A DNA stretch of 64,000 nt from the IMG/VR virus record IMGVR_UViG_3300027984_000001, one strand, 5' to 3'. Origin of the DNA: a virus. The first letter of the stretch is position 1, and each line of letters begins with the position of its first letter. The notes below the pieces were generated by a model. That model ran no database searches. It was not told where the DNA came from and saw only the letters and a program-made list of their open reading frames with translations. Of this stretch, positions 2,355 through 60,872 are shown one piece after another. Position numbers and translations under genes: made by a program.

Positions 2355-4399
2355 TACAACTCGACCTCTTCCGAATAATCCGACCTTTGAATATCAAACG
2401 AAACGACCCAACCATCCATATCAGGTTTATCGCTCAAACCGCTTGCAATTTGCCCAAAAATGGTACCGAATTTTCTATCTCTAACTACTAATGTATTATT
2501 TAATTCATTATATGCACGCAATATATTTCTTTCCTGTTTAGTAACGTAAAAGCTAAAGCTTAATAATTCATTAACCGATTCCCCTACTTGTATAACAGGA
2601 TACTTTCGGCCAATAAAATTAGTAAAATCTCTTTCCATTTGTTGTTTTCTTTCACGTTGTGGTTCATTGTCTACTTGCCGTAATAGCTTTAGCATATTGG
2701 ATCTATCTGTTACCGTCGCAATGGTAGTATACGGAAAATCTGTATATCCCGCCACTTGATTACTATCCGCGAATGCAAAGTTGGCCGTTACCACACGAAC
2801 ATAATAGACATATCTTTCATCCGGGGCGGCTGTATAATCATCATAATAATTTACGTCTACTGTTTTGGCAATTCGCTTAAACTTATTTGCGTCCGCCAAA
2901 CTACGATATACATATACATTATTTGATGCTAAATTGTCAAAATATAGTCTGTTACAAAACGCAATCGCTCTTGATACTTGTAAAGTAAGCGGCGGCGGTT
3001 GTTGGACGCTAATTGTAAAGTAAAACGTTGTCCATGTTGATTTAAGGCCATATTGATTAGCAATCCTGATATTAACCATATAATCCCCATTGGGGATTAA
3101 TTCTGTTATTGTGTGTTGACCTGCAACATAAGGAATATTATTCTTGACATACACACCATACAAAAAATTCGATATAGCCAAATCATAACTTAATACCCCA
3201 CTACCTGAGAAAAATATCGTTGGTCTGTTACTATTTGAAACGGCTGTAATAATAGGCGGCGGCGGCGCTCCAATAGTATAGAATGTGACTATACTACTCC
3301 ACGGGCCAACATCTCCCAATGCGCCATAAGCCCTGACTTGCCAATCTACTGTATGCTGACCGTCAATAACACCGGTTGTTAAAACAAGCGCACCTGTGGT
3401 ATTGCTTATGCTTTTCCATGCGCCACCGTCAATCCTATATTGCCCATCAAATGCTGACGGCGTGGCATCATACATGCTGGAATATAAAAATTCAAGATTT
3501 ACACCGGCGGAACCTATAACAGATATACCGACAGGAAACATAGGCGTCGGCGCAAGCGGCGGGTTTGTAGCTAAATTAAATGTTCCTTGTCCCCACGGCC
3601 CCCAGCCGTTATATTGCGTTTGTGTGCGAACCCGGATTGTTACCTGTGTATATGCTGTCATAGTATTAGCGGGTATAACATAGGTGTTTATAGTATCAGA
3701 TATAACAAAGTCTTTTAATGTAATGCCGCCTTGTACTATCTGAACCTGTGACGCAACCTGAGGATCAGGCGCAAGTAAATTCGGATTAGGCGCATGTGAC
3801 CACGTTGTTCTTATGTTCCCTTTGGGGTTCATAGTCATTGTCGGTTGTATATTTGTAGGCGCAAGCGGCAATAATGGATCTGCTGTAATAATTAATTGAT
3901 GACTGGAATCTGTCGCATATGCATTGCCCACAAGGGTATAACTACCGGCAAAACTCATGCCCATGTAACCGCCAAATACATTAGACATTTTTATAATACT
4001 TGTTACATCTGTATCCAAAATCCCCGATTGCAAATAATCGGCAGTAATGGAAACCATTAGCCCCGGGAATCCAGTGATATACTTATTATAGTCTATCGTT
4101 GGGTTTAAAAACATAGGCAAGTTGATATTATTAGAAACAAATGGTTGTATGCCATAAGCCGCCCGTGGGGTGGGCGGCGTTATAGCCATTGGATCTGTTG
4201 TCAATGATTGCCTATTCACTCTTAATATAACATTTGTTACGTTTAAGCGTAAAAATTGGGTAAAATCATACATACTCATTGTCATGTATGAATATGCCGC
4301 CGGGACATCACCGTAATGTATGCCTGTTAATAATGTGCCACTTGTACCGCCGGTCTTATAATATATGGCCGCTGGATTAATTGTATAAGTAGTCGCCAA
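2354..4399 (-). CDS. distal tail protein-like with Ig/FN3-like repeats
   Basis: 681 aa immediately after the tape measure. Pro/Thr-rich beta-rich repeats, Dit-like C-terminal part. Confidence 0.55.
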   Translation of the reverse strand: MATTYTINPAAIYYKTGGTSGTLLTGIHYGDVPAAYSYMTMSMYDFTQFLRLNVTNVILRVNRQSLTTDPMAITPPTPRAAYGIQPFVSNNINLPMFLNPTIDYNKYITGFPGLMVSITADYLQSGILDTDVTSIIKMSNVFGGYMGMSFAGSYTLVGNAYATDSSHQLIITADPLLPLAPTNIQPTMTMNPKGNIRTTWSHAPNPNLLAPDPQVASQVQIVQGGITLKDFVISDTINTYVIPANTMTAYTQVTIRVRTQTQYNGWGPWGQGTFNLATNPPLAPTPMFPVGISVIGSAGVNLEFLYSSMYDATPSAFDGQYRIDGGAWKSISNTTGALVLTTGVIDGQHTVDWQVRAYGALGDVGPWSSIVTFYTIGAPPPPIITAVSNSNRPTIFFSGSGVLSYDLAISNFLYGVYVKNNIPYVAGQHTITELIPNGDYMVNIRIANQYGLKSTWTTFYFTISVQQPPPLTLQVSRAIAFCNRLYFDNLASNNVYVYRSLADANKFKRIAKTVDVNYYDDYTAAPDERYVYYVRVVTANFAFADSNQVAGYTDFPYTTIATVTDRSNMLKLLRQVDNEPQRERKQQMERDFTNFIGRKYPVIQVGESVNELLSFSFYVTKQERNILRAYNELNNTLVVRDRKFGTIFGQIASGLSDKPDMDGWVVSFDIQRSDYSEEVEL

Positions 4400-14081: not shown

Positions 14082-14391
14082 CCAAAATATTAAAATGGGT
14101 ACACTACTCCCACTCCGCTAATAACTTAGCGTCTTTATTTTTCAATAAAGTGTAGACTATATTATTATCCCATTAGGATTCCTGCGCTGTCCCAGTGATT
14201 TTAGGGCATCTTAGTCGTTGAACCTTCCACTTTTCGCGGCTTGGCGGCTGATTATCCAATATTATTAGTTTTTAGCATTCACGCATAAGCTTATTTCATC
14301 TTTACGTTTTAGCCTAATAATCTCTAAGGATTTCCCAGCAATTCACAGGATTATTCGATACGCGTTTCCGCGTAAAGGAACAATTTCGGTT
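14082..14391 (-). mobile_element. group I self-splicing intron (ORF-less, 310 nt) in the major capsid gene
   Basis: Core elements P AAUUGCUGGGAAA, Q AAUCAGCC, R GUUCAACGACUAAGA and S AUAGUCUAC are present. Also P7 GACUA/UAGUC, two GAAA hairpins, a U.G 5' splice site and a terminal G at 14082. Confidence 0.8.
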
Positions 14392-16010: not shown

Positions 16011-17246
16011 TCATGCATTTAAAACTTTTATTTCAAACTTCAAATCATTTAAAAACTGATTAATTAAGTCCAATGTCATATCATTACGTATAACTACACG
16101 TTGCAATACAATATTGGATAAATTATCCGGCATTGCATATGCTGGAATCATCCAGCCTTTTAATGACATTCTATCACTTAAATTAAATAATGTCCAGTTT
16201 TTTTTCTCTTGTAATGTCCATGTAACAATTGGTATATCAATCCGACCCGCCCATAATTGGAATACTCCTATTTTCAAGATTTCATCCATAAGATAATAGG
16301 CTATTCTCATAGACATTTCATGAATAGCTTTTATACCATCAAACCCATAGCGTATAAATACCCAATATTGCAATAAAACTTGCGCACCGGGTCTTGTAAA
16401 ATTCAATGTGTTTGTTGGCATATGCCCTCCAAGATAATCCACGTAATGAATTAAACTTTTAGGGAAATAACTTCTATGCCGCCAAACTACCCAACCTATG
16501 CCCGGATACACTAATCCGTATTTATGGCCTGAGGTATTAATTGAGACAACACGTTTAATTCTGAAATCCCATCCAAAATTAGATTGCAGAAACGGCGCAA
16601 TCATCCCACCGCTTGCCGCGTCAACATGGATGGGAATATCAATATTCTGCTGTTCACTCATATCATTTAGCACTTGATTAACGCTTACAATGTCATCATA
16701 TTGCCCGGTATAAGTTATTCCAAGTGTAACCACAACACCAATAGTATTGTCATCAACCAATGACAATATACTATAACCATCCAACACTTTATGATGTTGT
16801 GATATTGGGGCGTACCTTGGTTCTACGTCAAAATAATTACAAAACTTTTTCCAGCACACATGTGCCGTTGTTGACATTACAAGATTAGGTTTACTTTTGC
16901 CGGTCAAACCTTCACAACGGCGTTTCATTGCCAAACCTGCCATTATACAGGCTTCGGACGAACCCACAGTAGAAAAACCTATTGCATTATCAACATTCTT
17001 ACAATGCCATAAATCGGCTATTATTTTCCAACATCCGTTTTCAATAGCTGTTGTTTGTGGATTTTCCGACTTATCAATTAGGTTTTTCCAATAGTATTTA
17101 GCATACAATTTGTTTGCGTACTCTTCCATTTCAGCCGTTATGAATGTTTCTATATTCTTTTGTGGATCTGCATCCTGCTTTAAACGTTCAAGTATTATTT
17201 GATATGCCTTTTCTGGTAACATAGGCTCTTTGGGCAATATATCCAT
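16011..17246 (-). CDS. gad: glutamate decarboxylase (PLP-dependent, GadB-like)
   Basis: Colinear with E. coli GadB motifs: ADLWH, GSSEAC, HVDAASGG, the PLP-lysine motif SGHKYGLVYPGIGWVVWR, and VDYLGG..NFTRP. Confidence 0.85.
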   Translation of the reverse strand: MDILPKEPMLPEKAYQIILERLKQDADPQKNIETFITAEMEEYANKLYAKYYWKNLIDKSENPQTTAIENGCWKIIADLWHCKNVDNAIGFSTVGSSEACIMAGLAMKRRCEGLTGKSKPNLVMSTTAHVCWKKFCNYFDVEPRYAPISQHHKVLDGYSILSLVDDNTIGVVVTLGITYTGQYDDIVSVNQVLNDMSEQQNIDIPIHVDAASGGMIAPFLQSNFGWDFRIKRVVSINTSGHKYGLVYPGIGWVVWRHRSYFPKSLIHYVDYLGGHMPTNTLNFTRPGAQVLLQYWVFIRYGFDGIKAIHEMSMRIAYYLMDEILKIGVFQLWAGRIDIPIVTWTLQEKKNWTLFNLSDRMSLKGWMIPAYAMPDNLSNIVLQRVVIRNDMTLDLINQFLNDLKFEIKVLNA

Positions 17247-22189: not shown

Positions 22190-23041
22190 TCACCTCTTTT
22201 TCACAGATTCATCCAATATCATAGGGACGCAATTATCCCATCTTATATGATGATGCAATCTTTTATGATTATCTCCCATCTCTCTAATGGTAACACATGA
22301 CGGGGCCATCATTACAGTATAAAACGACTTTAGATACGTACCAGTATCCAAATACACATCGGACATTCCACCTTTATTTTTTTGTGTAGTAGTCTGCACT
22401 ATATTACATCTTGATGTAGACAATAATAACTTTCCCCGCATACCCAACGTAACATAAGTATTAACGTCCTCATTTATTCTACCAACAAACCAAAATCTAT
22501 TAGATGTTTTGCAAAAAAAAGTATTCATAGTTTTGCGCATAATGCCTTTAGCGTAATTCTTGCTATCAGCCCCACCGATAAAATCTCCACCTTGGGCAAA
22601 TGCGACCGTTAATGCATTTGTATCCTCCAGTAAATTTATCATACGCTGAAATACTTGATCCGCATTTTTAACCTGAATAGTCATTAGTTTATTGCCTTTT
22701 ATATATCTATATTCCAAATCGCAATAATCATCATCAAGTTCTAAAAAATATTTTAAATTAAGATTTTCTGCAATGTCAAAACAAGCATTTCTCGCATAAA
22801 CAATAGTACGCATATCGTCAAATGTATCTGCTGTATCGAACCTATTTGATATATTTAGCTTGTCAAACGTAATAACAGACTTACCATATTTTTTATAATA
22901 CTCATTCGCTGATTCATCTTTATTATCGATGATAATATATATTTTTCCAGTATATCCCACTGTTTTAAGGGTCGATAAAGTTTTGACGTTATTTGCCCTG
23001 CCGTGTGATAGAATAAAACAAGCAAAATCATTGTTCATCAA
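22190..23041 (-). CDS. GT-A-like (DxD) putative glycosyltransferase, specificity unknown
   Basis: 283 aa. Rossmann-like N-terminus FILSHGR...IYIIIDNKDE and an LELDDDY motif. No TM segment. Confidence 0.35.
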   Translation of the reverse strand: MMNNDFACFILSHGRANNVKTLSTLKTVGYTGKIYIIIDNKDESANEYYKKYGKSVITFDKLNISNRFDTADTFDDMRTIVYARNACFDIAENLNLKYFLELDDDYCDLEYRYIKGNKLMTIQVKNADQVFQRMINLLEDTNALTVAFAQGGDFIGGADSKNYAKGIMRKTMNTFFCKTSNRFWFVGRINEDVNTYVTLGMRGKLLLSTSRCNIVQTTTQKNKGGMSDVYLDTGTYLKSFYTVMMAPSCVTIREMGDNHKRLHHHIRWDNCVPMILDESVKKR

Positions 23042-23744
23042 GTAAATCCTCTAATGATTGACTAATAAAGTCGTGTAACTTAACAAAACCGTATTCAATA
23101 GCCTTATCATAATCAATGATAACAAGCCCTGATTTTTCCATCAACTCTTGAACTTCTATGCTTGCATGAACATAAAATTCTGCTATTTTCTTGTAATTAA
23201 AAACATAATGCCTGTATGCCGCCTTAATTAAAAAATCTTTAATATATTCATCTATTGAACTATTAGTTATTTCATTGATTAACTCATCGGCCTTTTCAGT
23301 ATCCAGTAAGGAATCAATATCCGGGGATTCGCCATTCAATTCATAAACCGGAGTAATAACTTTATCAGTATAAGTCGAATCATCTAGGTTATCATCATTC
23401 AATGAGAAGCCAAAACGCTCCATATTAAAATCAAACAAATCCCCTAATTCAACATCCAATAAATTCATATCCCATTCCGACAATTCCGACGTCTTATTAT
23501 CCACAAGCCTATAGGCTTTTATTTGTTGTTCCGTCAAATCATCAATAATTACACAAGGTATAGTTTGTATTTTTAACTTTTGAGCGGCCTTTACTCTTGT
23601 ATGTCCCGCAACTATTGTATTGTTTTTATCAATAATTACAGGGTTCCTGAACCCAAACTCTTTTATACTGTTAACTACAGCATTAACGGCAGAATCATTT
23701 TTGCGCGGATTATGTTCGTACATTTTAAGACTTTCAATAGACAT
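23028..23744 (-). CDS. ParB-like nuclease domain protein
   Basis: ParB N-terminal motifs (NPR, IVAGHTRVKAA). 238 aa. Confidence 0.7.
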   Translation of the reverse strand: MSIESLKMYEHNPRKNDSAVNAVVNSIKEFGFRNPVIIDKNNTIVAGHTRVKAAQKLKIQTIPCVIIDDLTEQQIKAYRLVDNKTSELSEWDMNLLDVELGDLFDFNMERFGFSLNDDNLDDSTYTDKVITPVYELNGESPDIDSLLDTEKADELINEITNSSIDEYIKDFLIKAAYRHYVFNYKKIAEFYVHASIEVQELMEKSGLVIIDYDKAIEYGFVKLHDFISQSLEDLLDEQ

Positions 23745-23761
23745 ATTATATATTTGAATAA

Positions 23762-25051
23762 TTACACCCCCTTAATCAACTCTGCTTTTTGTTTGGTAAA
23801 TTCTTCCCACCTATCAACTATTAAATCACAATAACCGCAATCTAACTCCATAATATAACAAGCCCTGTTTAATTGTTCACACGCTATCAATGTACTGCCT
23901 GACCCTCCAAACGGTTCAATAACAATATCATTAATATCAGTCATTGCTTTGACATATTCTGCCGGGAATCCAATAGGGAAAACTGCCGGATGATCTTCGC
24001 GAATAGGGCCTTTTTCGCTATATAAAGATAATACACTTGTCATTTTTTTTAACGGATTGCTTGTATCCCCAACTGCACTATATTTTGTCGACCCATCTTT
24101 TTGTCGTCTTGTATTAACAGTTCTTAAATCACGATCCTTCTTGTCCCATGTGCAATTAATATCATAGTATTTAGTCCCAAAAACAAAAACCCATTCATGA
24201 CAAATCGGAAAAAATGCATGTTGCAAACCTATACTTCCAGAATTAATCTGATTCCAGATATTCCACGCCAATAGCTTATAACCGCATTGCTTAGCTTTTT
24301 CAATGTATGCATCCCAATATTGTACGATCTCGTACTCTTTACGTTGAATACCTAAATTAATACATTGATAATCGGTATACTTTTTATAGACATCAATAAA
24401 ATTAATTAAATTGTCTATAGAAATATCCTTATCCCCTCCATAAGTCCGCATATCGGAATATGGCGGGGACGTAAATAAGATGCGCCCTTTTTGTTTATTC
24501 ATTAGCAAATCGACATCATTTACATTTGTTGAATCCCCGCATACTAGCCTATGTTTACCCAACTTATAAACATTGCCTCGTTTAGTCTTAGGTATAATAG
24601 GCGGTTCTTTGTCATACTCATCCTCAGTAATTTCAATAGTATTAATATCGTCCTGTTGAATAGCAGAAATTGAATTTATATCAAACCCAAAATCAGCCAT
24701 ATTCATATCGAATATATTGCTTAATTCATCTTTTAATATATCAATATCCCATTCAGATTCATTAGTTTTATTATCCGCAAGCCGCAATGCATTCATTTCT
24801 TCTTGCGTCAAACCTTCTGCAATAACACATGGTACAGTATTCATTTTTAGCCGCTTCGCGGCTAGTAGTCTGGCGTGGCCAATAATGATATCATTATTAT
24901 TTGAGATTACCAGTGGTTGTTGCCATCCAAATGATTTTATACTATTGGAAACCTTGGTTATTTGTTCATCAGAATGTTTTTTTGCATTCTTGGGATAAGG
25001 TTTTAAATCTTTGATAGACTTTTCAATTACTTGAATAATATCACACCCCAC
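23762..25051 (-). CDS. ParB-domain / DNA methyltransferase fusion (N6A or N4C, beta class)
   Basis: ParB N-domain (IIGHARLLAAKRL) plus motif IV TSPPY and motif I EPFGGSGST. GTG start. Confidence 0.8.
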   Translation of the reverse strand: MGCDIIQVIEKSIKDLKPYPKNAKKHSDEQITKVSNSIKSFGWQQPLVISNNNDIIIGHARLLAAKRLKMNTVPCVIAEGLTQEEMNALRLADNKTNESEWDIDILKDELSNIFDMNMADFGFDINSISAIQQDDINTIEITEDEYDKEPPIIPKTKRGNVYKLGKHRLVCGDSTNVNDVDLLMNKQKGRILFTSPPYSDMRTYGGDKDISIDNLINFIDVYKKYTDYQCINLGIQRKEYEIVQYWDAYIEKAKQCGYKLLAWNIWNQINSGSIGLQHAFFPICHEWVFVFGTKYYDINCTWDKKDRDLRTVNTRRQKDGSTKYSAVGDTSNPLKKMTSVLSLYSEKGPIREDHPAVFPIGFPAEYVKAMTDINDIVIEPFGGSGSTLIACEQLNRACYIMELDCGYCDLIVDRWEEFTKQKAELIKGV

Positions 25052-27019: not shown

Positions 27020-27637
27020 CTATTTCTGTCCATCCGGCCATTGAATATCATTTTCTTTTATTGCTTTTTGAACATCCTGTGTAATACTTGTACCGACATA
27101 AGATTCCGGGTCTATATATTGAGATTGAGTATCGTCAAAACTACCGCCATCACCGCCATGTACAATGCCCTGAGCGTCCGTATGGGTCGTACTTACCGAA
27201 CCTTCGGCGGGCGCTCTTTTATCCTCCACGTTTGGTATAAATAAATCCCAATACCATTTAGGCCCTCCGATACTTTCCATTTCCTGCGCTATTTGTTCTT
27301 GGGACTTATCTACCTTTGACCCTTGAAATGCGCTTATCGCGTCATCTAGCGCCGTCCTCCAAACTTTTTCTTGCGGGTCTGTTATTGTTTCTTTAGGCGC
27401 GTATGCCCAATCAAACGACTTCAATCTTTCATCATTTATCGTTTGTTCCGGCACGCCCTCTGCTTGCATTTCCTCCCTTGTTTTATCCCTCAAGCCGGTC
27501 GCATCATCTCCATAGGCAATCCACGATATAGTATCAGCTTCTTTCTCAGCAATAGCTTGTTTAGCAGAATCCCCTATTGCCGTTACCCCTTGCCAAACTA
27601 TTTGCTTACTTGCTTCTTTTCCTGTATCTAGTACCAT
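27020..27637 (-). CDS. hypothetical acidic protein; probably N-terminally extended to 27760/27763 with a signal anchor
   Basis: 205-aa ORF. 41 in-frame upstream codons encode KTILTIAAIIFGLYLLG right after a GGAAGGAGG SD, but the only available starts there are ATT or ATA. Confidence 0.6.
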   Translation of the reverse strand: MVLDTGKEASKQIVWQGVTAIGDSAKQAIAEKEADTISWIAYGDDATGLRDKTREEMQAEGVPEQTINDERLKSFDWAYAPKETITDPQEKVWRTALDDAISAFQGSKVDKSQEQIAQEMESIGGPKWYWDLFIPNVEDKRAPAEGSVSTTHTDAQGIVHGGDGGSFDDTQSQYIDPESYVGTSITQDVQKAIKENDIQWPDGQK

Positions 27638-27775
27638 ATTAGCGCCTTTTTGAATACTTTGCGCAAATTGGTTATTTAAATTAGGATTAGCCGAAAAATC
27701 AGTATTGCCCAGTAGATACAGACCAAATATAATAGCGGCTATTGTTAATATTGTTTTTATAATATTCCTCCTTCC

Positions 27776-29113
27776 TTACTTCATTACGCCGCTCATGGTA
27801 TCACTAATTGCATTTTTAACGTTATTGGATATTGACCCTTCCGCAAATGCCTGTGGATCCAGATATGTTTGCGGCGACTGCGTAGATTGTGATTTTTTTA
27901 TTTGTATTGACCCTTCCGATTTCACAATTAACTTTTGCGAGTTAACAAATACTGCTGGCGTCGGCGTCGGCGTCGGCGTGGCCTGTTTTGGCTTTGCCGT
28001 GGGCTTAGGTGTATTTGTGCTAACCCGAACATCTCCAGATTTTTCTTTCGACTTTGGCTCCTGTTTCTTTTCCTGAACCGGCGCGGATGTTTCTTCATTC
28101 TGTGCCGGTTCAACCGGTTGATTATCTTCACTATTTATCACAATAGGTGTAGGCGCTGGCGCTTGCGTCGGCGCAGACGTGGGAACCAGCGTTAGTTTAT
28201 TTTTGATTTCCACGTCTGGCCTTAACCGCAATATAGCCTTTGCACTTGATACGCCGGATGAATCAAGCGGAATCTTTCCCGCTCGCATTCTTATTAAAGC
28301 ACTCGCATTATCTGTATTAGACATAGGTACAACTTTTGACGCGTACAAATCTTTATACAATAAAGACATCCCGCCATCTAACAAAGTGTAAATTTCCCCG
28401 TCTAACACATATATATCACCCGGTTGCGCCTTGTCATGACCGGGCCAAATAAATACCGCCAAATCCGGCCTGTCGGTTAATGACATCAACATATCCACAG
28501 TAGTTGACCCAAATGGTAGAACCAAGCCATCCTTTAGTAAGGTATACGCGTGCCCATCAGCGGCAATCATTATATCACCCGGCACGGCATCTTCAGGCTT
28601 TACCAATACTGTTTCCTGTGCTATTTGCTCGGGCGTTTTCCATGGGTCAGGTTGTGGGATCGGCGTCAATGTAGGGGAGTCTGTTTCCTGCCCTTGCGTT
28701 TGTTCAACTGTATTATCTGCTTGCGCATTATCCACAACCTGAGTATTGTCAACCGGCGGCTGATTTTGATTTACTGCCATTATCGCGCCCTGTACAGCGT
28801 CAGATATTAGTTGTTTTATTTCATCAGCCGTCATCGTGTCTGACGACGGTTGTTGTTGAATATTTTGGGTATCAGTAATACTGCTCAAATCTTGAGTATC
28901 AGTATTACTGCCCAATAATTGTTTATTTGATACCTGCGCCGTGCTACTATCGTTTGGATCATACACATGCACAGTATAAGGATTACTTGTCGGTTGCCAT
29001 ATCGCGTTTAATGCGGCGGCTGTCTGTTGTGTAGCTGTTTGGGCATTAGATGTATTGATATTAATAATACCGTTATAATATAAAATGCCCATAATACCTA
29101 CAATAAACAACAC
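27776..29113 (-). CDS. membrane-anchored Pro/Thr/Gln-rich protein
   Basis: 445 aa. N-terminal TM (FIVGIMGILYY), low-complexity linkers including (TP)4. Confidence 0.6.
   Translation of the reverse strand: MLFIVGIMGILYYNGIININTSNAQTATQQTAAALNAIWQPTSNPYTVHVYDPNDSSTAQVSNKQLLGSNTDTQDLSSITDTQNIQQQPSSDTMTADEIKQLISDAVQGAIMAVNQNQPPVDNTQVVDNAQADNTVEQTQGQETDSPTLTPIPQPDPWKTPEQIAQETVLVKPEDAVPGDIMIAADGHAYTLLKDGLVLPFGSTTVDMLMSLTDRPDLAVFIWPGHDKAQPGDIYVLDGEIYTLLDGGMSLLYKDLYASKVVPMSNTDNASALIRMRAGKIPLDSSGVSSAKAILRLRPDVEIKNKLTLVPTSAPTQAPAPTPIVINSEDNQPVEPAQNEETSAPVQEKKQEPKSKEKSGDVRVSTNTPKPTAKPKQATPTPTPTPAVFVNSQKLIVKSEGSIQIKKSQSTQSPQTYLDPQAFAEGSISNNVKNAISDTMSGVMK
27957..27980. repeat. tandem hexamer (GGCGTC)x4 encoding (Thr-Pro)n
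   Basis: Seen directly. Explains the spurious Arg-rich ORFs on both strands here. Confidence 0.8.
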
Positions 29114-29136
29114 AAATAATCCTGAATTGTTTCCCC

Positions 29137-29394
29137 TCAGACAGCATCACCTCTCGGGCCTATCCAGTCATAATGACAAACCTCCGGTAATAAACATGTG
29201 TAATGACCGTCCAGTAATCCATAATGGCGGCAAACCTCACACGTTATCATAGGCCGTTGATCCTCTATAGCTAATTCTAAGGCGTGTATTAAAAACCGCA
29301 CGTCGGAAATATTTACCTTTCGGGATGTATCATCATCCAGTTTATCCTTTATATCCTCTATTCTTTCCCTATAATCCATGCCCTCACTTCCCAT
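29137..29394 (-). CDS. small Cys/His-rich protein downstream of tubZ
   Basis: 85 aa (or 80 aa from MDYRE). CxxC...C...C pattern. Confidence 0.5.
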   Translation of the reverse strand: MGSEGMDYRERIEDIKDKLDDDTSRKVNISDVRFLIHALELAIEDQRPMITCEVCRHYGLLDGHYTCLLPEVCHYDWIGPRGDAV

Positions 29395-30719: not shown

Positions 30720-30956
30720 TTATTCCTCTCCAGACAATTCTTTCAGAATATTTATCCCCTTCTGTGTAATATAGAATACTTTTGAGTGCCCATCCATCAT
30801 ACCATGAGCGGTATACCCTTCACGGCGCAACATATTTAGGCGATTATAAATCGTCCGTTCGCAAACCCCAGCTATTTCAATCTCTCGCGTTTTGACCGCC
30901 AATAGCTTAGTCGTGTATCCGCCTTTTAATAGATAATCCAACAAAACTGCATCCAA
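30720..30956 (-). CDS. tubR: winged-helix DNA-binding protein (TubR-like candidate)
   Basis: 78 aa. wHTH pattern (ERTIYNRLNMLRREGY). First gene of the tubZ cluster. May start at ATT 30965 (the SD is 9 nt upstream). Confidence 0.5.
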   Translation of the reverse strand: MDAVLLDYLLKGGYTTKLLAVKTREIEIAGVCERTIYNRLNMLRREGYTAHGMMDGHSKVFYITQKGINILKELSGEE

Positions 30957-31022
30957 CCTACTAATTTTTCAATACCTCCTTCCTCGCTTATTTTGGGGCC
31001 GATTTCTCAGCCCCATTTGCCA

Positions 31023-32906: not shown

Positions 32907-33080
32907 TTATTCAACCTCCATTTCAGCCCATTCAATAAATCCGTCCCAACAACTAATACCATATTCGCCAAAACGACAACTACCATACGCCGGGCAATTT
33001 TCACACTCAATGTCAACTAGCCCATCAATATTAAACGATTCCGGCGTTAATTCCTGCCGCCATTTCTCAAAATTAGTCAT
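32907..33080 (-). CDS. MTNFEKW-family small Cys-rich protein, paralog 1 (57 aa)
   Basis: MTNFEKW...CENCPAYGSC...C..GFIEWA. Below the ORF cutoff. Its ATG lies 8 nt inside the end of the upstream ORF (ATGACTAA). Confidence 0.6.
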   Translation of the reverse strand: MTNFEKWRQELTPESFNIDGLVDIECENCPAYGSCRFGEYGISCWDGFIEWAEMEVE

Positions 33081-33273
33081 TGTTAATTATCACATCTCCC
33101 CATTTTTTAAAAACATCCCAACACGACCCATCGGACAACTGGCCTGAACAATCCATTACTGCCGGGCATTTATGGCACGGCAGTTTTATCACATCTGAAT
33201 CATATGCGCTTTTAAAATCCGCCATTGTCGGCGGCGCATACGTTGTCTTTACCCATTCTTCAAAACGCGTCAT
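33073..33273 (-). CDS. MTNFEKW-family small Cys-rich protein, paralog 2
   Basis: MTRFEEW...CHKCPAVMDC...C.DVFKKW. Confidence 0.6.
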   Translation of the reverse strand: MTRFEEWVKTTYAPPTMADFKSAYDSDVIKLPCHKCPAVMDCSGQLSDGSCWDVFKKWGDVIINND

Positions 33274-33349
33274 AAAGCAATTATTCCCCTCCCATATTCA
33301 TTCCTCCCCGTCCATGTGAACGCTTTTTCATTTGATAACCTTATATCAT

Positions 33350-44792: not shown

Positions 44793-45080
44793 TTAATCCC
44801 TCCTATAAATCCATTTTAAGTCGTTCATAATATTTTGAAATAATTGCGTATTTTTATTGTCAAACAATACGTAATAAGGCAATTCATCAATTTCTCTTGC
44901 ACATCTTTCCTTCATTTCGCATAATGCAGTAATGTAATCATTAATCTGTTTATCGTCATAGTCAATTAGTAAATCTAAATCGCTATCAAATGTCTGCTCG
45001 CGCCGCGCAAATGAACCAAAAACCCCTAGCTTTATTATGCTAGGGTGTTTTTTAGCAATGTTAACGATTCTTTCAAACAT
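44793..45080 (-). CDS. mntA: minimal nucleotidyltransferase (MNT) domain protein
   Basis: GVFGSFARRE...DSDLDLLIDY motif. Start at ATG 45080 after a GAAGGAGGG SD. Confidence 0.75.
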   Translation of the reverse strand: MFERIVNIAKKHPSIIKLGVFGSFARREQTFDSDLDLLIDYDDKQINDYITALCEMKERCAREIDELPYYVLFDNKNTQLFQNIMNDLKWIYRRD

Positions 45081-45388
45081 TCGTTTGTTCCCTCCTTCAT
45101 TAACTCTTGACATATAGCCCATACAACCTTAAAATCCACGCCCATATAATTATGACTGGAAACATTCCTTAACCGGCGTAATTGCGGTAACTGGACTGGC
45201 GAATCATCCCGTAAGTTCTTATCACATTCAGTAACATTTGTAATTAATTGGGTAATCGCGTATTTCTCACATAATGAATTTTTAAGTGATTCCCAACTGT
45301 CCATACCGCTCATAATAGACTTAATATCAGCGATATATTTTTGAATTTGGCGGATATTTTGAATATCCGTATGGACTGATTTTATCAT
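45035..45388 (-). CDS. hepT: HEPN (DUF86) domain protein
   Basis: RxxxH motif LRNVSSHNYMGVD. Start at MIKSV after a GGAGGGA SD. Overlaps the MNT gene by 46 nt. Confidence 0.7.
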   Translation of the reverse strand: MIKSVHTDIQNIRQIQKYIADIKSIMSGMDSWESLKNSLCEKYAITQLITNVTECDKNLRDDSPVQLPQLRRLRNVSSHNYMGVDFKVVWAICQELMKEGTNECLKESLTLLKNTLA

Positions 45389-45418
45389 TTTTGTTCCCTC
45401 CATGTTTCTATCTGATAT

Positions 45419-45559: not shown

Positions 45560-45673
45560 ATGGCTTATTTGTTAATCTCAATTAAACTCTTTATACAGCA
45601 TACTAGGCTGTATCCCCTTATTAGCTTGGTATTTACCCATGGAATTATATTCTACATAATCCCCCTCAATTAA
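45560..45673 (+). CDS. possible 37-aa hydrophobic peptide antisense to the dcd 3' end
   Basis: AAGGA SD 9 nt before the ATG. MAYLLISIKLFIQHTRLYPLISLVFTHGIIFYIIPLN. Could equally be a shadow ORF. Confidence 0.25.
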   Translation: MAYLLISIKLFIQHTRLYPLISLVFTHGIIFYIIPLN

Positions 45674-46099
45674 GTGATAATATATCTGACAGATTTCAAC
45701 GTAAGGATATATCCTTATTGGCTGTACACAATGTATTTCTAACGTCCTATATCCCTTAAACCCCACATCCCCGAATCCTGCCGTTATGTGTATAAACAAA
45801 CCTAGTCTGCCTATTGAAGATCTACCCTCTAACATAGGCACTAGACCATTTGTTTCTGTATATTCTAAAGTTCTTCCTAGGTATAATGTTCCGGGAAAAA
45901 GCTCCAATCCTTCGTTAGGTATGGTTATCAATTTTGTTTTATGTTGTTTCTTTATATCTAGTATAGGTTCATCATAGACCATCAACTCATTGTGAAGTTT
46001 TAAATTGTAGCTGTTTGGGTTCAAACAATTTTTGTCAAATGGATCTATCACAATTTGCTTATCCAATCTTTTTTCTATTTCCAACCCAGATAATATCAC
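45578..46099 (-). CDS. dcd: dCTP deaminase
   Basis: MILSGLEI..., NPNSYNL, EGRSSIGRLGLFIH motifs typical of Dcd. GTG start. Confidence 0.8.
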   Translation of the reverse strand: MILSGLEIEKRLDKQIVIDPFDKNCLNPNSYNLKLHNELMVYDEPILDIKKQHKTKLITIPNEGLELFPGTLYLGRTLEYTETNGLVPMLEGRSSIGRLGLFIHITAGFGDVGFKGYRTLEIHCVQPIRIYPYVEICQIYYHLIEGDYVEYNSMGKYQANKGIQPSMLYKEFN

Positions 46100-48208: not shown

Positions 48209-48814
48209 TCAATCTTTTTTTTCAGCAAATCCGTAATAATCCCTTATGGCATCATCAACAAATTTTAAATCGTTTTCAATTTCTAAAGGGAATAATTCCA
48301 TGGGAGATTTGGCCGGTGTCATGCCGTCACTGTTAGTTATAAATTTGTACTGCCCGGCGTCAATTTTCGCTAATAACACGATTGAAAACATACCTTCAAC
48401 CGTTAACTGTTGGTCTAACATTTTGCCTACCGTTTTGGCTTTTAAAACGCCCGTATCGCTGATTTCTGTATGATGGAGAAAATAAACAATTACATCGTCT
48501 GGCAATTTACGGACTTGGTCAATGAGATTCCGAAAGTTGACGGCGATTTCTGTGAATTTGCTATAATTGTTGATGTTCGCCTTATCGAACATTTCGAACG
48601 CCATCAAGAACTGACTGTCATCAATGACATATTTTTTCAGCGTGGGCTTATTCAAACTTTTCTGTATCGTCTGATACGTCGCGTTATTAATGATTTTATT
48701 CATCTTTTTGCGGAATGGCAATGGTTTACCCGCCACGTTGAATATGCCTACTTCATTCGGTTCAAAATTTCTGAGTGAACAACTCTTACCTAACCCGCTG
48801 GAACCTAAAATCAA
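48209..48814 (-). CDS. Sak4-like RecA-fold ATPase (AAA_24); probable true start ATC 48829
   Basis: P-loop GSSGLGKS only 4 residues after the TTG start. ATC lies 8 nt after GGGAGG and adds GIAVL (strand beta1). Confidence 0.7.
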   Translation of the reverse strand: MILGSSGLGKSCSLRNFEPNEVGIFNVAGKPLPFRKKMNKIINNATYQTIQKSLNKPTLKKYVIDDSQFLMAFEMFDKANINNYSKFTEIAVNFRNLIDQVRKLPDDVIVYFLHHTEISDTGVLKAKTVGKMLDQQLTVEGMFSIVLLAKIDAGQYKFITNSDGMTPAKSPMELFPLEIENDLKFVDDAIRDYYGFAEKKD

Positions 48815-48849
48815 AACTGCTATTCCGATAAGTCATTCCTCCCTTATAT

Positions 48850-52464: not shown

Positions 52465-52710
52465 CTATCCGAACATTATTAAAACAATCCCTAATGGTAT
52501 AAAGACAACCCCACACATAAAAAGACATCCTGAATGTTTTTTAGAATCGGCGTACTGCTTAGGCGTTATTTTAGGATTATTAAGCGTGACAAAAACGCCT
52601 TTAAAGATAATACCAATGATAAAGATAAATGCCGCTATTCCTGTGGATAATAAAAAGATCCCGATTTTTTTTGTTATACCAGACCGCCCCTTCCAGCAAA
52701 TAACAAGCAT
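52465..52710 (-). CDS. two-TM membrane protein
   Basis: 81 aa with two hydrophobic helices. Confidence 0.5.
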   Translation of the reverse strand: MLVICWKGRSGITKKIGIFLLSTGIAAFIFIIGIIFKGVFVTLNNPKITPKQYADSKKHSGCLFMCGVVFIPLGIVLIMFG

Positions 52711-52883
52711 ACCCCTACAAGAATTAAAAGGACTGCCGTCATGCAGATAAAGCCGAATAAAAAACCTACAATGGTAAAAAACGTTAGTCTATTCTTATCA
52801 ATATACTGGAGTAAATTCATTCCGTTAACGCGCATTTTAGGAAATATTATCTTTATAATTATCCCAAATGCGACAAAATACAC
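52674..52883 (-). CDS. two-TM membrane protein; probable true start ATT 52922
   Basis: The GTG start truncates TM1. ATT lies 6 nt after GGAGGG and completes QIAGTLLSGIGIVYFVAFGIII. Confidence 0.5.
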   Translation of the reverse strand: MYFVAFGIIIKIIFPKMRVNGMNLLQYIDKNRLTFFTIVGFLFGFICMTAVLLILVGVCLLFAGRGGLV

Positions 52884-53123
52884 AATCCCAATTCCTGATA
52901 ATAATGTTCCCGCAATTTGAATTTATATCCCTCCAAATTTCCACAATATGAATATAGATTTTAAATATGTCATATTGCAATAATATTGACATTATCTTGT
53001 ATAAACAATAGCTAAAGAATAACAATATATTAATGTAATTCACTCCAATTTGTATTCATGTATCGTCATATTATATTCATGCTCCGCCATATTAGATACA
53101 CATTATTTCATTTTTAATTCATT

Positions 53124-59971: not shown

Positions 59972-60763
59972 TTATCGCATTCCTACATTAACTCCGGTTC
60001 CAAGTATCCCGCGTTTTGCCTCATTTTCCGTTCGTGTTATTTCTAATGCCGCCCGCGCTTCATTCACTCCACGTAAATAATTTTCATTTGCTATGCGTTC
60101 TTGCTCTATCTTTTTAGCTTCGGCACGTCTGGCCGCATCATTAACCACTTCCGCTTCCGTTTCCATCTCCATACGTGGATTATCTGAGCGCATATCATTG
60201 GATGGGGTTGTTTTAGCTTCTCCACGAACAAAACGCCCTGTACGCCTACTTCTTTTAGGCAATCGACGTGCGGCTTCCATTCCTCCATCAGCTTCATACT
60301 CTTGCTCATATTCGTTCCCATTGGATCTATATTCCATTTCCTGACGGGCCGTTCTACGCGCTTCATCCCGTGCCGTTTCCATTATTTCTGCCAGCATTTC
60401 ATCCATATTAACATTATCATAATCCGATCTGTATCCACGTCTGCCACGTTCGGTTCCCGGCATGCCCCTTCTCATTTTTGAAGGTTCATGATATTCCTGA
60501 CCATCGTTTCTGTATTCATCATAACTATTTCTATATTCATTTTTTCTTAACTGTGGTAATGGCCCCGGAAAAATATTCTGCCATGAAAAGGGTTGCTGAC
60601 TTCCAGACTTAAAGCCTATAGGCTGTTTACCGTCCCCGCCCATATATCGCTGTAATACGTCCTTTAACCCAGTGTCTTTTATTTCACACAACAAATTAAG
60701 AACCTCAGTAAATACAGCCCCTGCTGATAGATTGGCGATTGCCTGAGCATCCCGCATCTCCAT
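59972..60763 (-). CDS. highly charged Arg/Glu/Tyr-rich protein; possible N-terminal extension from ATC 60844
   Basis: 263 aa. 27 in-frame upstream codons (IEDLKKLIKRLESELAEYETKL) lie behind an AGAAGG SD. Confidence 0.55.
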   Translation of the reverse strand: MEMRDAQAIANLSAGAVFTEVLNLLCEIKDTGLKDVLQRYMGGDGKQPIGFKSGSQQPFSWQNIFPGPLPQLRKNEYRNSYDEYRNDGQEYHEPSKMRRGMPGTERGRRGYRSDYDNVNMDEMLAEIMETARDEARRTARQEMEYRSNGNEYEQEYEADGGMEAARRLPKRSRRTGRFVRGEAKTTPSNDMRSDNPRMEMETEAEVVNDAARRAEAKKIEQERIANENYLRGVNEARAALEITRTENEAKRGILGTGVNVGMR

Positions 60764-60872
60764 TTTGCCGCCAGAACTTAACTTCGTTTCATACTCCGCG
60801 AGTTCACTTTCTAACCTTTTAATTAATTTTTTTAAATCTTCGATTGTTAAAACCTTCTTTCGTGCATATAAT

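Follow-up and report, generated by a model that had tools for sequence, protein, structure and literature searches.

Initiation of translation at codons that are not AUG, GUG or UUG is known from a small number of bacterial genes. In E. coli, AUA, AUC, AUU and CUG starts yield 1-2% of the AUG level, and infC (IF3) and pcnB have been named as the only confirmed non-canonical starts (bioRxiv 10.1101/063800). In S. aureus, Ribo-Ret mapped AUA and AUU starts behind extended Shine-Dalgarno (SD) motifs (AUA for infC, ccpN and citZ, AUU for cvfC1), and in reporters such weak starts had a yield of approximately 10-30% relative to AUG (Kohl et al. 2026, PMC13009471). We analyzed the start codons in a 64-kb stretch of DNA of an uncultivated phage, which opens a 67.8-kb viral contig assembled from JGI metagenome 3300027891 (IMG/VR record IMGVR_UViG_3300027984_000001; hereafter the window). 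At least 8 of its approximately 103 open reading frames (ORFs), among them the gene for a Sak4-like ATPase, appear to open at ATT, ATC, ATA or CTG. On the sequence comparisons given below it is likely that these genes truly begin at near-cognate codons (AUU, AUC, AUA and one CUG).

The phage resembles the E. coli infC and pcnB cases in the near-cognate AUU behind an SD site, in the use of initiator tRNA and, on the expression side by inference, in a low and IF3-dependent yield. Each of those two is one housekeeping gene whose feedback loop has been worked out, whereas here about 8% of the genes of a phage, of many kinds, would be affected. With S. aureus the window shares the Bacillota setting and the combination of a strong extended SD with a fitting spacer, which corresponds to the strong SD sites and 6-9 nucleotide (nt) spacing found here, although one of the starts in the window (ATC 60844) stands behind a weak SD. 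The S. aureus work provides direct evidence for four starts in a bacterial genome (infC and three tested with reporters), in contrast to the comparative evidence for at least eight in 64 kb presented here. Near-cognate initiation is an already known mechanism, of which this phage is a dense new example and not a new kind. What is new is how many well-supported weak starts a single phage carries, the exchange of ATG for ATY (ATT or ATC) and the reverse relative to a sister phage, including the portal and tape measure genes, and an ATGAC(T/C)T-ATC module at Sak4.

Probable weak starts at the Sak4-like ATPase gene and elsewhere in the window

The minus strand carries all genes of the window, and all features described below lie on it; the G+C content is 38% and there are no tRNA genes. 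The best case is the gene for the Sak4-like AAA_24 ATPase (48209..48829, 206 amino acids), with ATC 48829-48827 as its start. The SD site GGGAGG (48838..48843) has its core 8 nt before the ATC and forms a duplex of -11.2 kcal/mol with the 16S rRNA tail. A first reading of the letters and ORFs (the sequence-only reading) had described this layout, with TTG 48814 as the nearest canonical codon and an in-frame TGA (48835-48833) upstream of the ATC, and these coordinates were all correct. It had counted four residues between the TTG and the P-loop; there are three (M-I-L) before the P-loop glycine. Its proposal that the ATC restores a missing strand β1 was borne out by an AlphaFold2 model of the 206-residue protein (mean predicted local distance difference test score 85.5, and 94 for the first ten residues), in which β1 comprises residues 3-8. 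Starting at TTG 48814, the protein would begin at residue 6 of this frame and lose half of β1. GSSGLGKS, of Walker A type (GxxGxGKS/T), follows directly after β1, and I69, D70 and D71 of a Walker B-type hhhDD motif are invariant in 19 homologs. The Pfam AAA_24 profile matched with 28.4 bits (curated cut-off 27), residues 3-176 aligning with profile positions 3-194 of 195. A Sipho_Gp157 gene lies upstream and a DUF927 helicase gene downstream, the acidic tail of the next gene's product reads DDLPF, and the placement fits a Gp157 - Sak4 - DUF669/SSB-like - helicase module.

Homolog starts coincide with the ATC. When the extended protein was compared with phage records by tblastn, most matches began at query residue 1, and for Hafnia phage Meifeng and coliphage TL-2011a the match began exactly at the annotated GTG or ATG. 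The codon aligned to ATC 48829 was ATG or GTG in approximately 33 of 39 IMG/VR Sak4 loci and ATC in 2; among 80 genome contigs it was ATG in 69, GTG in 5, ATC in 3 and ATT in 1. Overall, more than 100 homologs have their ATG or GTG start precisely at the codon aligned to the ATC, and about 6% of the sampled Sak4 genes begin at ATC or ATT. Two other routes into the frame were considered. Read-through of the upstream TGA was dropped because the upstream frame is not conserved and homologs begin with M-G. A +1 frameshift from an out-of-frame ATG was rejected by reasoning, since the shift would be needed within two codons and ACU-UAU-C is not known to be slippery.

The sequence-only reading had named four more starts of this kind, and on re-inspection every coordinate, motif and spacing for all five was correct. 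Its claim that ATT, ATC and ATA codons behind good SD sites serve as starts was supported, with direct homolog evidence for four of the five: the extended N-termini are conserved or matched to homolog starts at 48829, 52922, 60844 and 27760. A small protein with two transmembrane (TM) segments (52674..52922, 82 amino acids) starts at ATT 52922-52920, which lies 6 nt after GGAGGG (7 nt from the GGAGG core) with a TAA directly upstream, and the extension completes TM1. The ortholog in a syntenic relative, G001 (IMGVR_UViG_3300027891_000011, 40-94% protein identity; L156, Ga0209629_10000018, is a longer contig of the G001 type), has GTG at the aligned codon behind AAGGAGG (VQIAGIILSG versus IQIAGTLLSG in the window).

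A charged protein of 290 amino acids (59972..60844) starts at ATC 60844-60842, 8 nt after AGAAGG and 27 codons before ATG 60763. The extension is conserved. In the ortholog (L043/G001) the codon aligned to the ATC is ATA, and over the 27 codons upstream of the ATG there are 9 synonymous-only and 5 replacement differences (counted by eye); the upstream stretch TATTATATG..GAAAGAAGGTTTTA is also conserved. The SD lies within a 6-codon mini-ORF (60845-60870; ATG CAC GAA AGA AGG TTT TAA) that ends 2 nt before the ATC and comes after an intrinsic terminator, made up of the hairpin GGGCGGG..CCCGCC and a run of T; the relative has ATG TGC GAA AGA AGG TTT TAG at this place (L043, about 2975-3000). The mini-ORF may be a coupling device.

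For a signal-anchored 246-amino acid protein next to the endolysin (27020..27760), the sequence-only reading had offered either ATT 27763 or ATA 27760 behind GGAAGGAGG, 42 and 41 codons before ATG 27637. The coordinates and the 41-residue signal anchor held, and the choice falls on ATA 27760-27758, with ATT 27763 as the alternative, because the ATA lies 6 nt after GGAGG and the ATT only 3 nt. In an exhaustive phmmer search two distant homologs, P0003 (41% identity) and P0004, began with M or V aligned to the ATA and had the same hydrophobic anchor; the anchor is present in the L156 ortholog as well. A TubR-like protein of the winged-helix type (gene 30720..30965, 81 amino acids) probably starts at ATT 30965-30963. 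The spacing claimed for it stood (9 nt after AGGAGG, versus 18 nt between the SD and TTG 30956), and its SD, GAAGGAGGT, is the strongest in the window (-12.5 kcal/mol). Homolog support was weaker here: no close homolog of the TubR-like protein was found, and comparison of the L156 ortholog (MELSRTDA) with the window (xISRLDA) shows conservation of the S-R pair between the ATT and the TTG. Two gene callers disagree on the product (74 versus 78 amino acids).

Further weak starts were found in the window. A ParB-like gene (23028..23759, 243 amino acids) has ATT 23759-23757 as its start, with AAGGGGGTG upstream and the SD core 7 nt away; the ATT aligned with ATG in L029 and L027 (MQII, MQIV) and with ATT in L156 (IQIY in both). 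The ParB-methyltransferase gene (23762..25036, 424 amino acids) starts at ATT 25036-25034, with a weak SD (-6.0 kcal/mol). In alignments this ATT falls on the ATG annotated for Streptococcus phage Javan213 and on an ATG in prophage Lj771, whose annotated coding sequence begins further downstream; at the same position the relative has the identical ATT ATT CAA GTA and no canonical start. A membrane protein of 454 amino acids (27776..29140) probably starts at CTG 29140-29138, which lies 6 nt after GAGAGGTGA; the L156 ortholog has its GTG start at the aligned codon, in a shared TGA-TGY-TRT context. ATA 33297-33295 is a possible weak start of a small gene (33073..33297), with CGGGGAGGA 5 nt upstream and a second SD 12-13 nt before ATG 33273; a homolog search gave no match. 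The capsid ORF at 14103 was dropped as a weak-start case, its missing start being due to a group I intron of the contig.

The weak codons share the spacing of ordinary starts. The SD core lies 6-9 nt before them, compared with a peak at 7-9 nt among the window's canonical starts that have a strong SD. For the nearest canonical codons an SD is either lacking at a usable distance or stands 18 nt away. At 48829, 52922, 30965, 60844, 27760, 23759 and 29140 there is an in-frame stop upstream with no canonical start in between. Five of the weak starts have SD duplex energies from -9.8 to -12.5 kcal/mol, and the median for weak starts was -11.1 kcal/mol compared to -7.1 kcal/mol for canonical genes (one-sided Mann-Whitney, P = 0.03). 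Three of the strongest SD sites of the window (-12.5, -11.9 and -11.2 kcal/mol) have only an ATY codon in range, in each case opening a long ORF. We scanned the coding strand for ATY codons behind a strong SD and upstream of the first canonical start. The window had 6 matches and 28 canonical strong-SD genes, compared to 8 and 325, respectively, in 505 kb of related viral loci (Fisher, P = 7e-4); a stricter scan yielded 1.09 matches per 10 kb in the window versus 0.27 per 10 kb over 622 kb of other loci. Chance does not account for this pattern, and the earlier remark that such a density is unusual holds.

Positions 17020-37637 are identical across the JGI 3300027891, ENA and Logan assemblies, positions 28296-50858 have 99.996% identity to JGI metagenome 3300002175, and the compared regions were identical or differed by a single gap. 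Because the same sequence is present in assemblies of two metagenomes, the weak codons are not assembly errors.

The heptamer before ATC-started Sak4 genes

Between the SD and the ATC of the Sak4-like gene lies the heptamer ATGACTT (48830..48836), which contains an out-of-frame ATG and the in-frame TGA. ATGAC(T/C)T stands directly before the ATC in all six ATC-started Sak4 genes found (the window, L029/L030, L065, L084, L100 and L107; ATGACCT in one) and in none of the more than 100 ATG- or GTG-started homologs. This strict linkage makes ATGAC(T/C)T-ATC a defined 10-nt element. The six genes lie dispersed across the family tree. A careful tree built from 38 proteins contains three of the ATC genes, which require three label changes; at least two of these are forced by well-supported branches. 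In a quick tree of 115 proteins, five of the six have nearest neighbors that start with ATG or GTG, and six label changes are needed for six leaves; the sixth gene, the long-branched L065, sits nearest to the Sak4 gene of the window.

The SD sequences and the upstream genes differ among the six loci, and for the latter reason the idea that the heptamer is a coding part of a conserved upstream gene was dropped. A conserved RNA structure around ATGACTT was looked for and none was found. Probably the ATGAC(T/C)T-ATC unit was spread by recombination at the 5' end of Sak4. It may, from its sequence and distribution, be a mobile start module with a regulatory role of its own, one possibility being that the out-of-frame AUG acts as a decoy that would limit initiation at the AUC. 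In the DNA available for the other phages with an ATC-started Sak4 gene there were no further weak starts.

Several related loci have features of their own. The 26 nt at the Sak4 start of L029, GGAAGGAGTGATGACTTATCGGATTA, are also present in L054 (minus strand, pattern match at 1704-1719) before an unrelated 130-codon ORF that has an in-frame ATG at codon 12; this copy resembles the remnant of a Sak4 5' end where two mosaic segments join. In L084, upstream of 1501, the preceding gene ends ..KRKTAGGYLWEYE and runs over the Sak4 start, and its tail is like the C-terminal DNA-binding tail of free-standing homing endonucleases. Co-conversion driven by an endonuclease of this type could spread the ATGACTT-ATC module. 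The Sak4 gene in a Ruminococcus metagenome-assembled genome (MAG; L132 at 1501) begins at ATT behind AAAGGAGGAG and lacks ATGACTT, an independent weak start in the family. In L077, at 1501, the aligned codon is TGC; an ATG that follows an A run is shifted from the frame by one base, probably through a one-base error in the assembly.

Start codons in the syntenic relative

The relative G001/L156 has approximately eight genes on weak starts, mostly genes other than those of the window, with three or four common to both. Its tape measure gene begins at ATA directly after a TGA, the first canonical codon being number 61, and the N-terminus aligned from residue 1 with the ATG-started protein of the window. 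The portal gene (ATT), a tail gene (ATA) and a DUF669-like gene (ATT) of the relative likewise have weak starts, and their orthologs in the window all have ATG. Orthologs of the genes starting at 60844, 23759 and 25036 begin at ATA, ATT and ATT, respectively. Start codons of orthologs thus switch between strong and weak in both directions. Weak starts make up about 8% of the genes in each of the two phages, and the habit belongs to the phage lineage.

Two orthologs in the relative depart from these patterns. At 3091-3130 of L156, in the signal-anchor gene, ACG and ACA replace the ATT and ATA of the window; the distance from GGAGGA to the ACG is 6 nt, and before codon 30 there is no canonical start. 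This ortholog may begin at ACG, although from the sequence this is uncertain. In G001 (L045, 23429-24616) the ortholog of the window gene starting at ATG 967 has AAA aligned with that ATG. Its first canonical start comes no earlier than codon 63, and its SD (AAGGGGAGTGG) has no ATY codon within usable distance.

Explanations for the weak starts

We infer that ribosomes initiate at the weak codons. A strong SD would pair with the 16S rRNA tail and position the weak codon in the P site of the ribosome, with the spacing usual for this genome, where the initiator formylmethionyl (fMet)-tRNA would read it with one mismatch, so that the protein begins with Met. Initiation would be less efficient than at AUG and would depend on proofreading by IF3, resulting in reduced, tunable protein levels; by analogy with the known cases a lower, IF3-dependent yield is expected from the weak starts. 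The predicted N-termini are Met-Gly-Ile-Ala-Val-Leu for the ATPase and, as an example of a weak-start peptide, Met/fMet-GIAVLILGSSGLGK. A variant initiator tRNA encoded by the phage was considered and dropped, since tRNA genes are absent from the window and the remainder of the contig as well as from G001 and the other relatives' loci scanned. No IF3- or IF1-like phage gene was among the precomputed Pfam hits from approximately 17,000 to the far end of the contig, which do not cover positions 1 to approximately 17,000.

Several findings weigh against near-cognate initiation at individual sites. An in-frame ATG lies five codons downstream of ATT 23759, and GTG 25051, which has no SD, lies five codons upstream of ATT 25036; either codon may be used, alone or in addition. 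The SD of ATC 60844, GAAAGAAGG, is weak (-5.2 kcal/mol), and the case for ATT 30965 consists of the SD position and two conserved residues. Several weak starts also follow the stop of the upstream gene by 2-20 nt, and reinitiation may contribute there.

With approximately one gene in 12 on a weak start, this lineage is a natural test case for a dosing device versus lax host proofreading. Dosing would fit DNA-binding, nuclease, methylase and membrane proteins, while the weak starts of the portal and tape measure genes in the relative suggest lax proofreading. We tentatively entertain a translation setting for both phages in which near-cognate start codons would be almost as good as AUG, and separately a mobile ATC start module of Sak4; this is the less probable arrangement, and such a setting would point to a host or phage factor with lax start-codon proofreading and not to gene-by-gene dosing.

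A rather unlikely account is that the weak codons are served mainly by ribosomes finishing an upstream frame, through termination-reinitiation or 70S scanning, and not by fresh SD-led binding of 30S subunits. An upstream stop lies 2 nt before ATT 23759, 13 nt before ATT 27763 (16 nt before ATA 27760) and 20 nt before ATC 48829, the mini-ORF that ends 2 nt before ATC 60844 is kept in the relative, and the ATA of the relative's tape measure gene follows directly on a TGA. ATT 52922 and ATT 30965, however, lie 227 and 54 nt past the previous stop, and at most sites a strong SD stands at the optimal distance, a feature that reinitiation by itself would not require. Reinitiation also concerns how ribosomes arrive and not where translation starts.

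Initiation at the downstream canonical codons TTG 48814, GTG 52883, TTG 30956, ATG 60763 and ATG 27637, with the ATY codons coincidental, is improbable. JGI and ENA gene calls do use these codons (products of 201, 74/78, 205 and 261 amino acids), and a canonical codon lies within five codons of ATT 23759 and of ATT 25036. Against this, the downstream codons have no SD at a usable distance, and homolog starts align with the ATY codons and not with them. Starting there would remove half of β1, half of TM1, a conserved 27-residue segment and a signal anchor that is kept in homologs. With near-cognate starts, the public gene calls for this phage would cut off just these parts, and gene finders restricted to ATG, GTG and TTG will err likewise in related Clostridia phages.

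We consider it slightly less probable still that the ATY codons are recently mutated ATG codons of decaying genes, with no selection on the weak codon. Most homologs do have ATG or GTG at these positions, and orthologs of the two related phages often differ, one having ATG where the other has ATY. The weak-start genes, however, showed neither frameshifts nor stops, and the N-terminal extensions evolve like coding sequence. Weak codons are kept in place in orthologs of 54-63% identity (ATC/ATA, ATT/ATT, ATT/ATT), and ATC recurs in six diverged Sak4 genes. Eight start-codon changes without other damage are unlike neutral decay. Tailed phages need their portal and tape measure genes, and in the relative these carry ATT and ATA.

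That the weak codons are sequencing or assembly errors at a true ATG, for example through modified DNA, can practically be set aside: a TAGT-family protein and a pyridoxal phosphate (PLP)-dependent decarboxylase near the packaging genes suggest base hypermodification, but the sequence is the same in the JGI, ENA and Logan assemblies and 99.996% identical in the second metagenome, the Sak4 ATC recurs in unrelated metagenomes and MAGs, and errors would not strike start codons alone while approximately 90 other genes keep ATG, GTG or TTG. Precomputed Pfam hits place the TAGT-family (PF20691) gene at 22190-23041, just upstream of the terminase genes, and the decarboxylase gene at 16011-17246, among the head genes; together they hint at hypermodified DNA bases.

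The terminase of the window shares 56% identity with those from phages of Enterococcus and Lactococcus. The best 80 genome-borne Sak4 homologs are nearly all from Clostridia, and the phage host probably belongs to the Bacillota, class Clostridia. Other searches for relatives gave less. The first genome and metagenome scans gave no match, nor did a megablast of 6 kb against the phage collection. In IMG/VR scans the genes for the signal-anchored and TubR-like proteins, the gene at 33297, the portal and the tubulin had no relatives, and word-indexed protein searches with two of these matched only the truncated products of the window itself.

A further weak start may be present in a human-gut phage, L001 (MT835521), in which a 420-codon ORF on the minus strand near 28198 has an ATT 6 nt after CAAGGAGGC and 24 codons before its first canonical start. 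The early region of the window encodes, according to precomputed Pfam hits at 45035-45403 and 45578-46099, a HepT-like/nucleotidyltransferase pair of toxin-antitoxin type and a dCTP deaminase-like protein.

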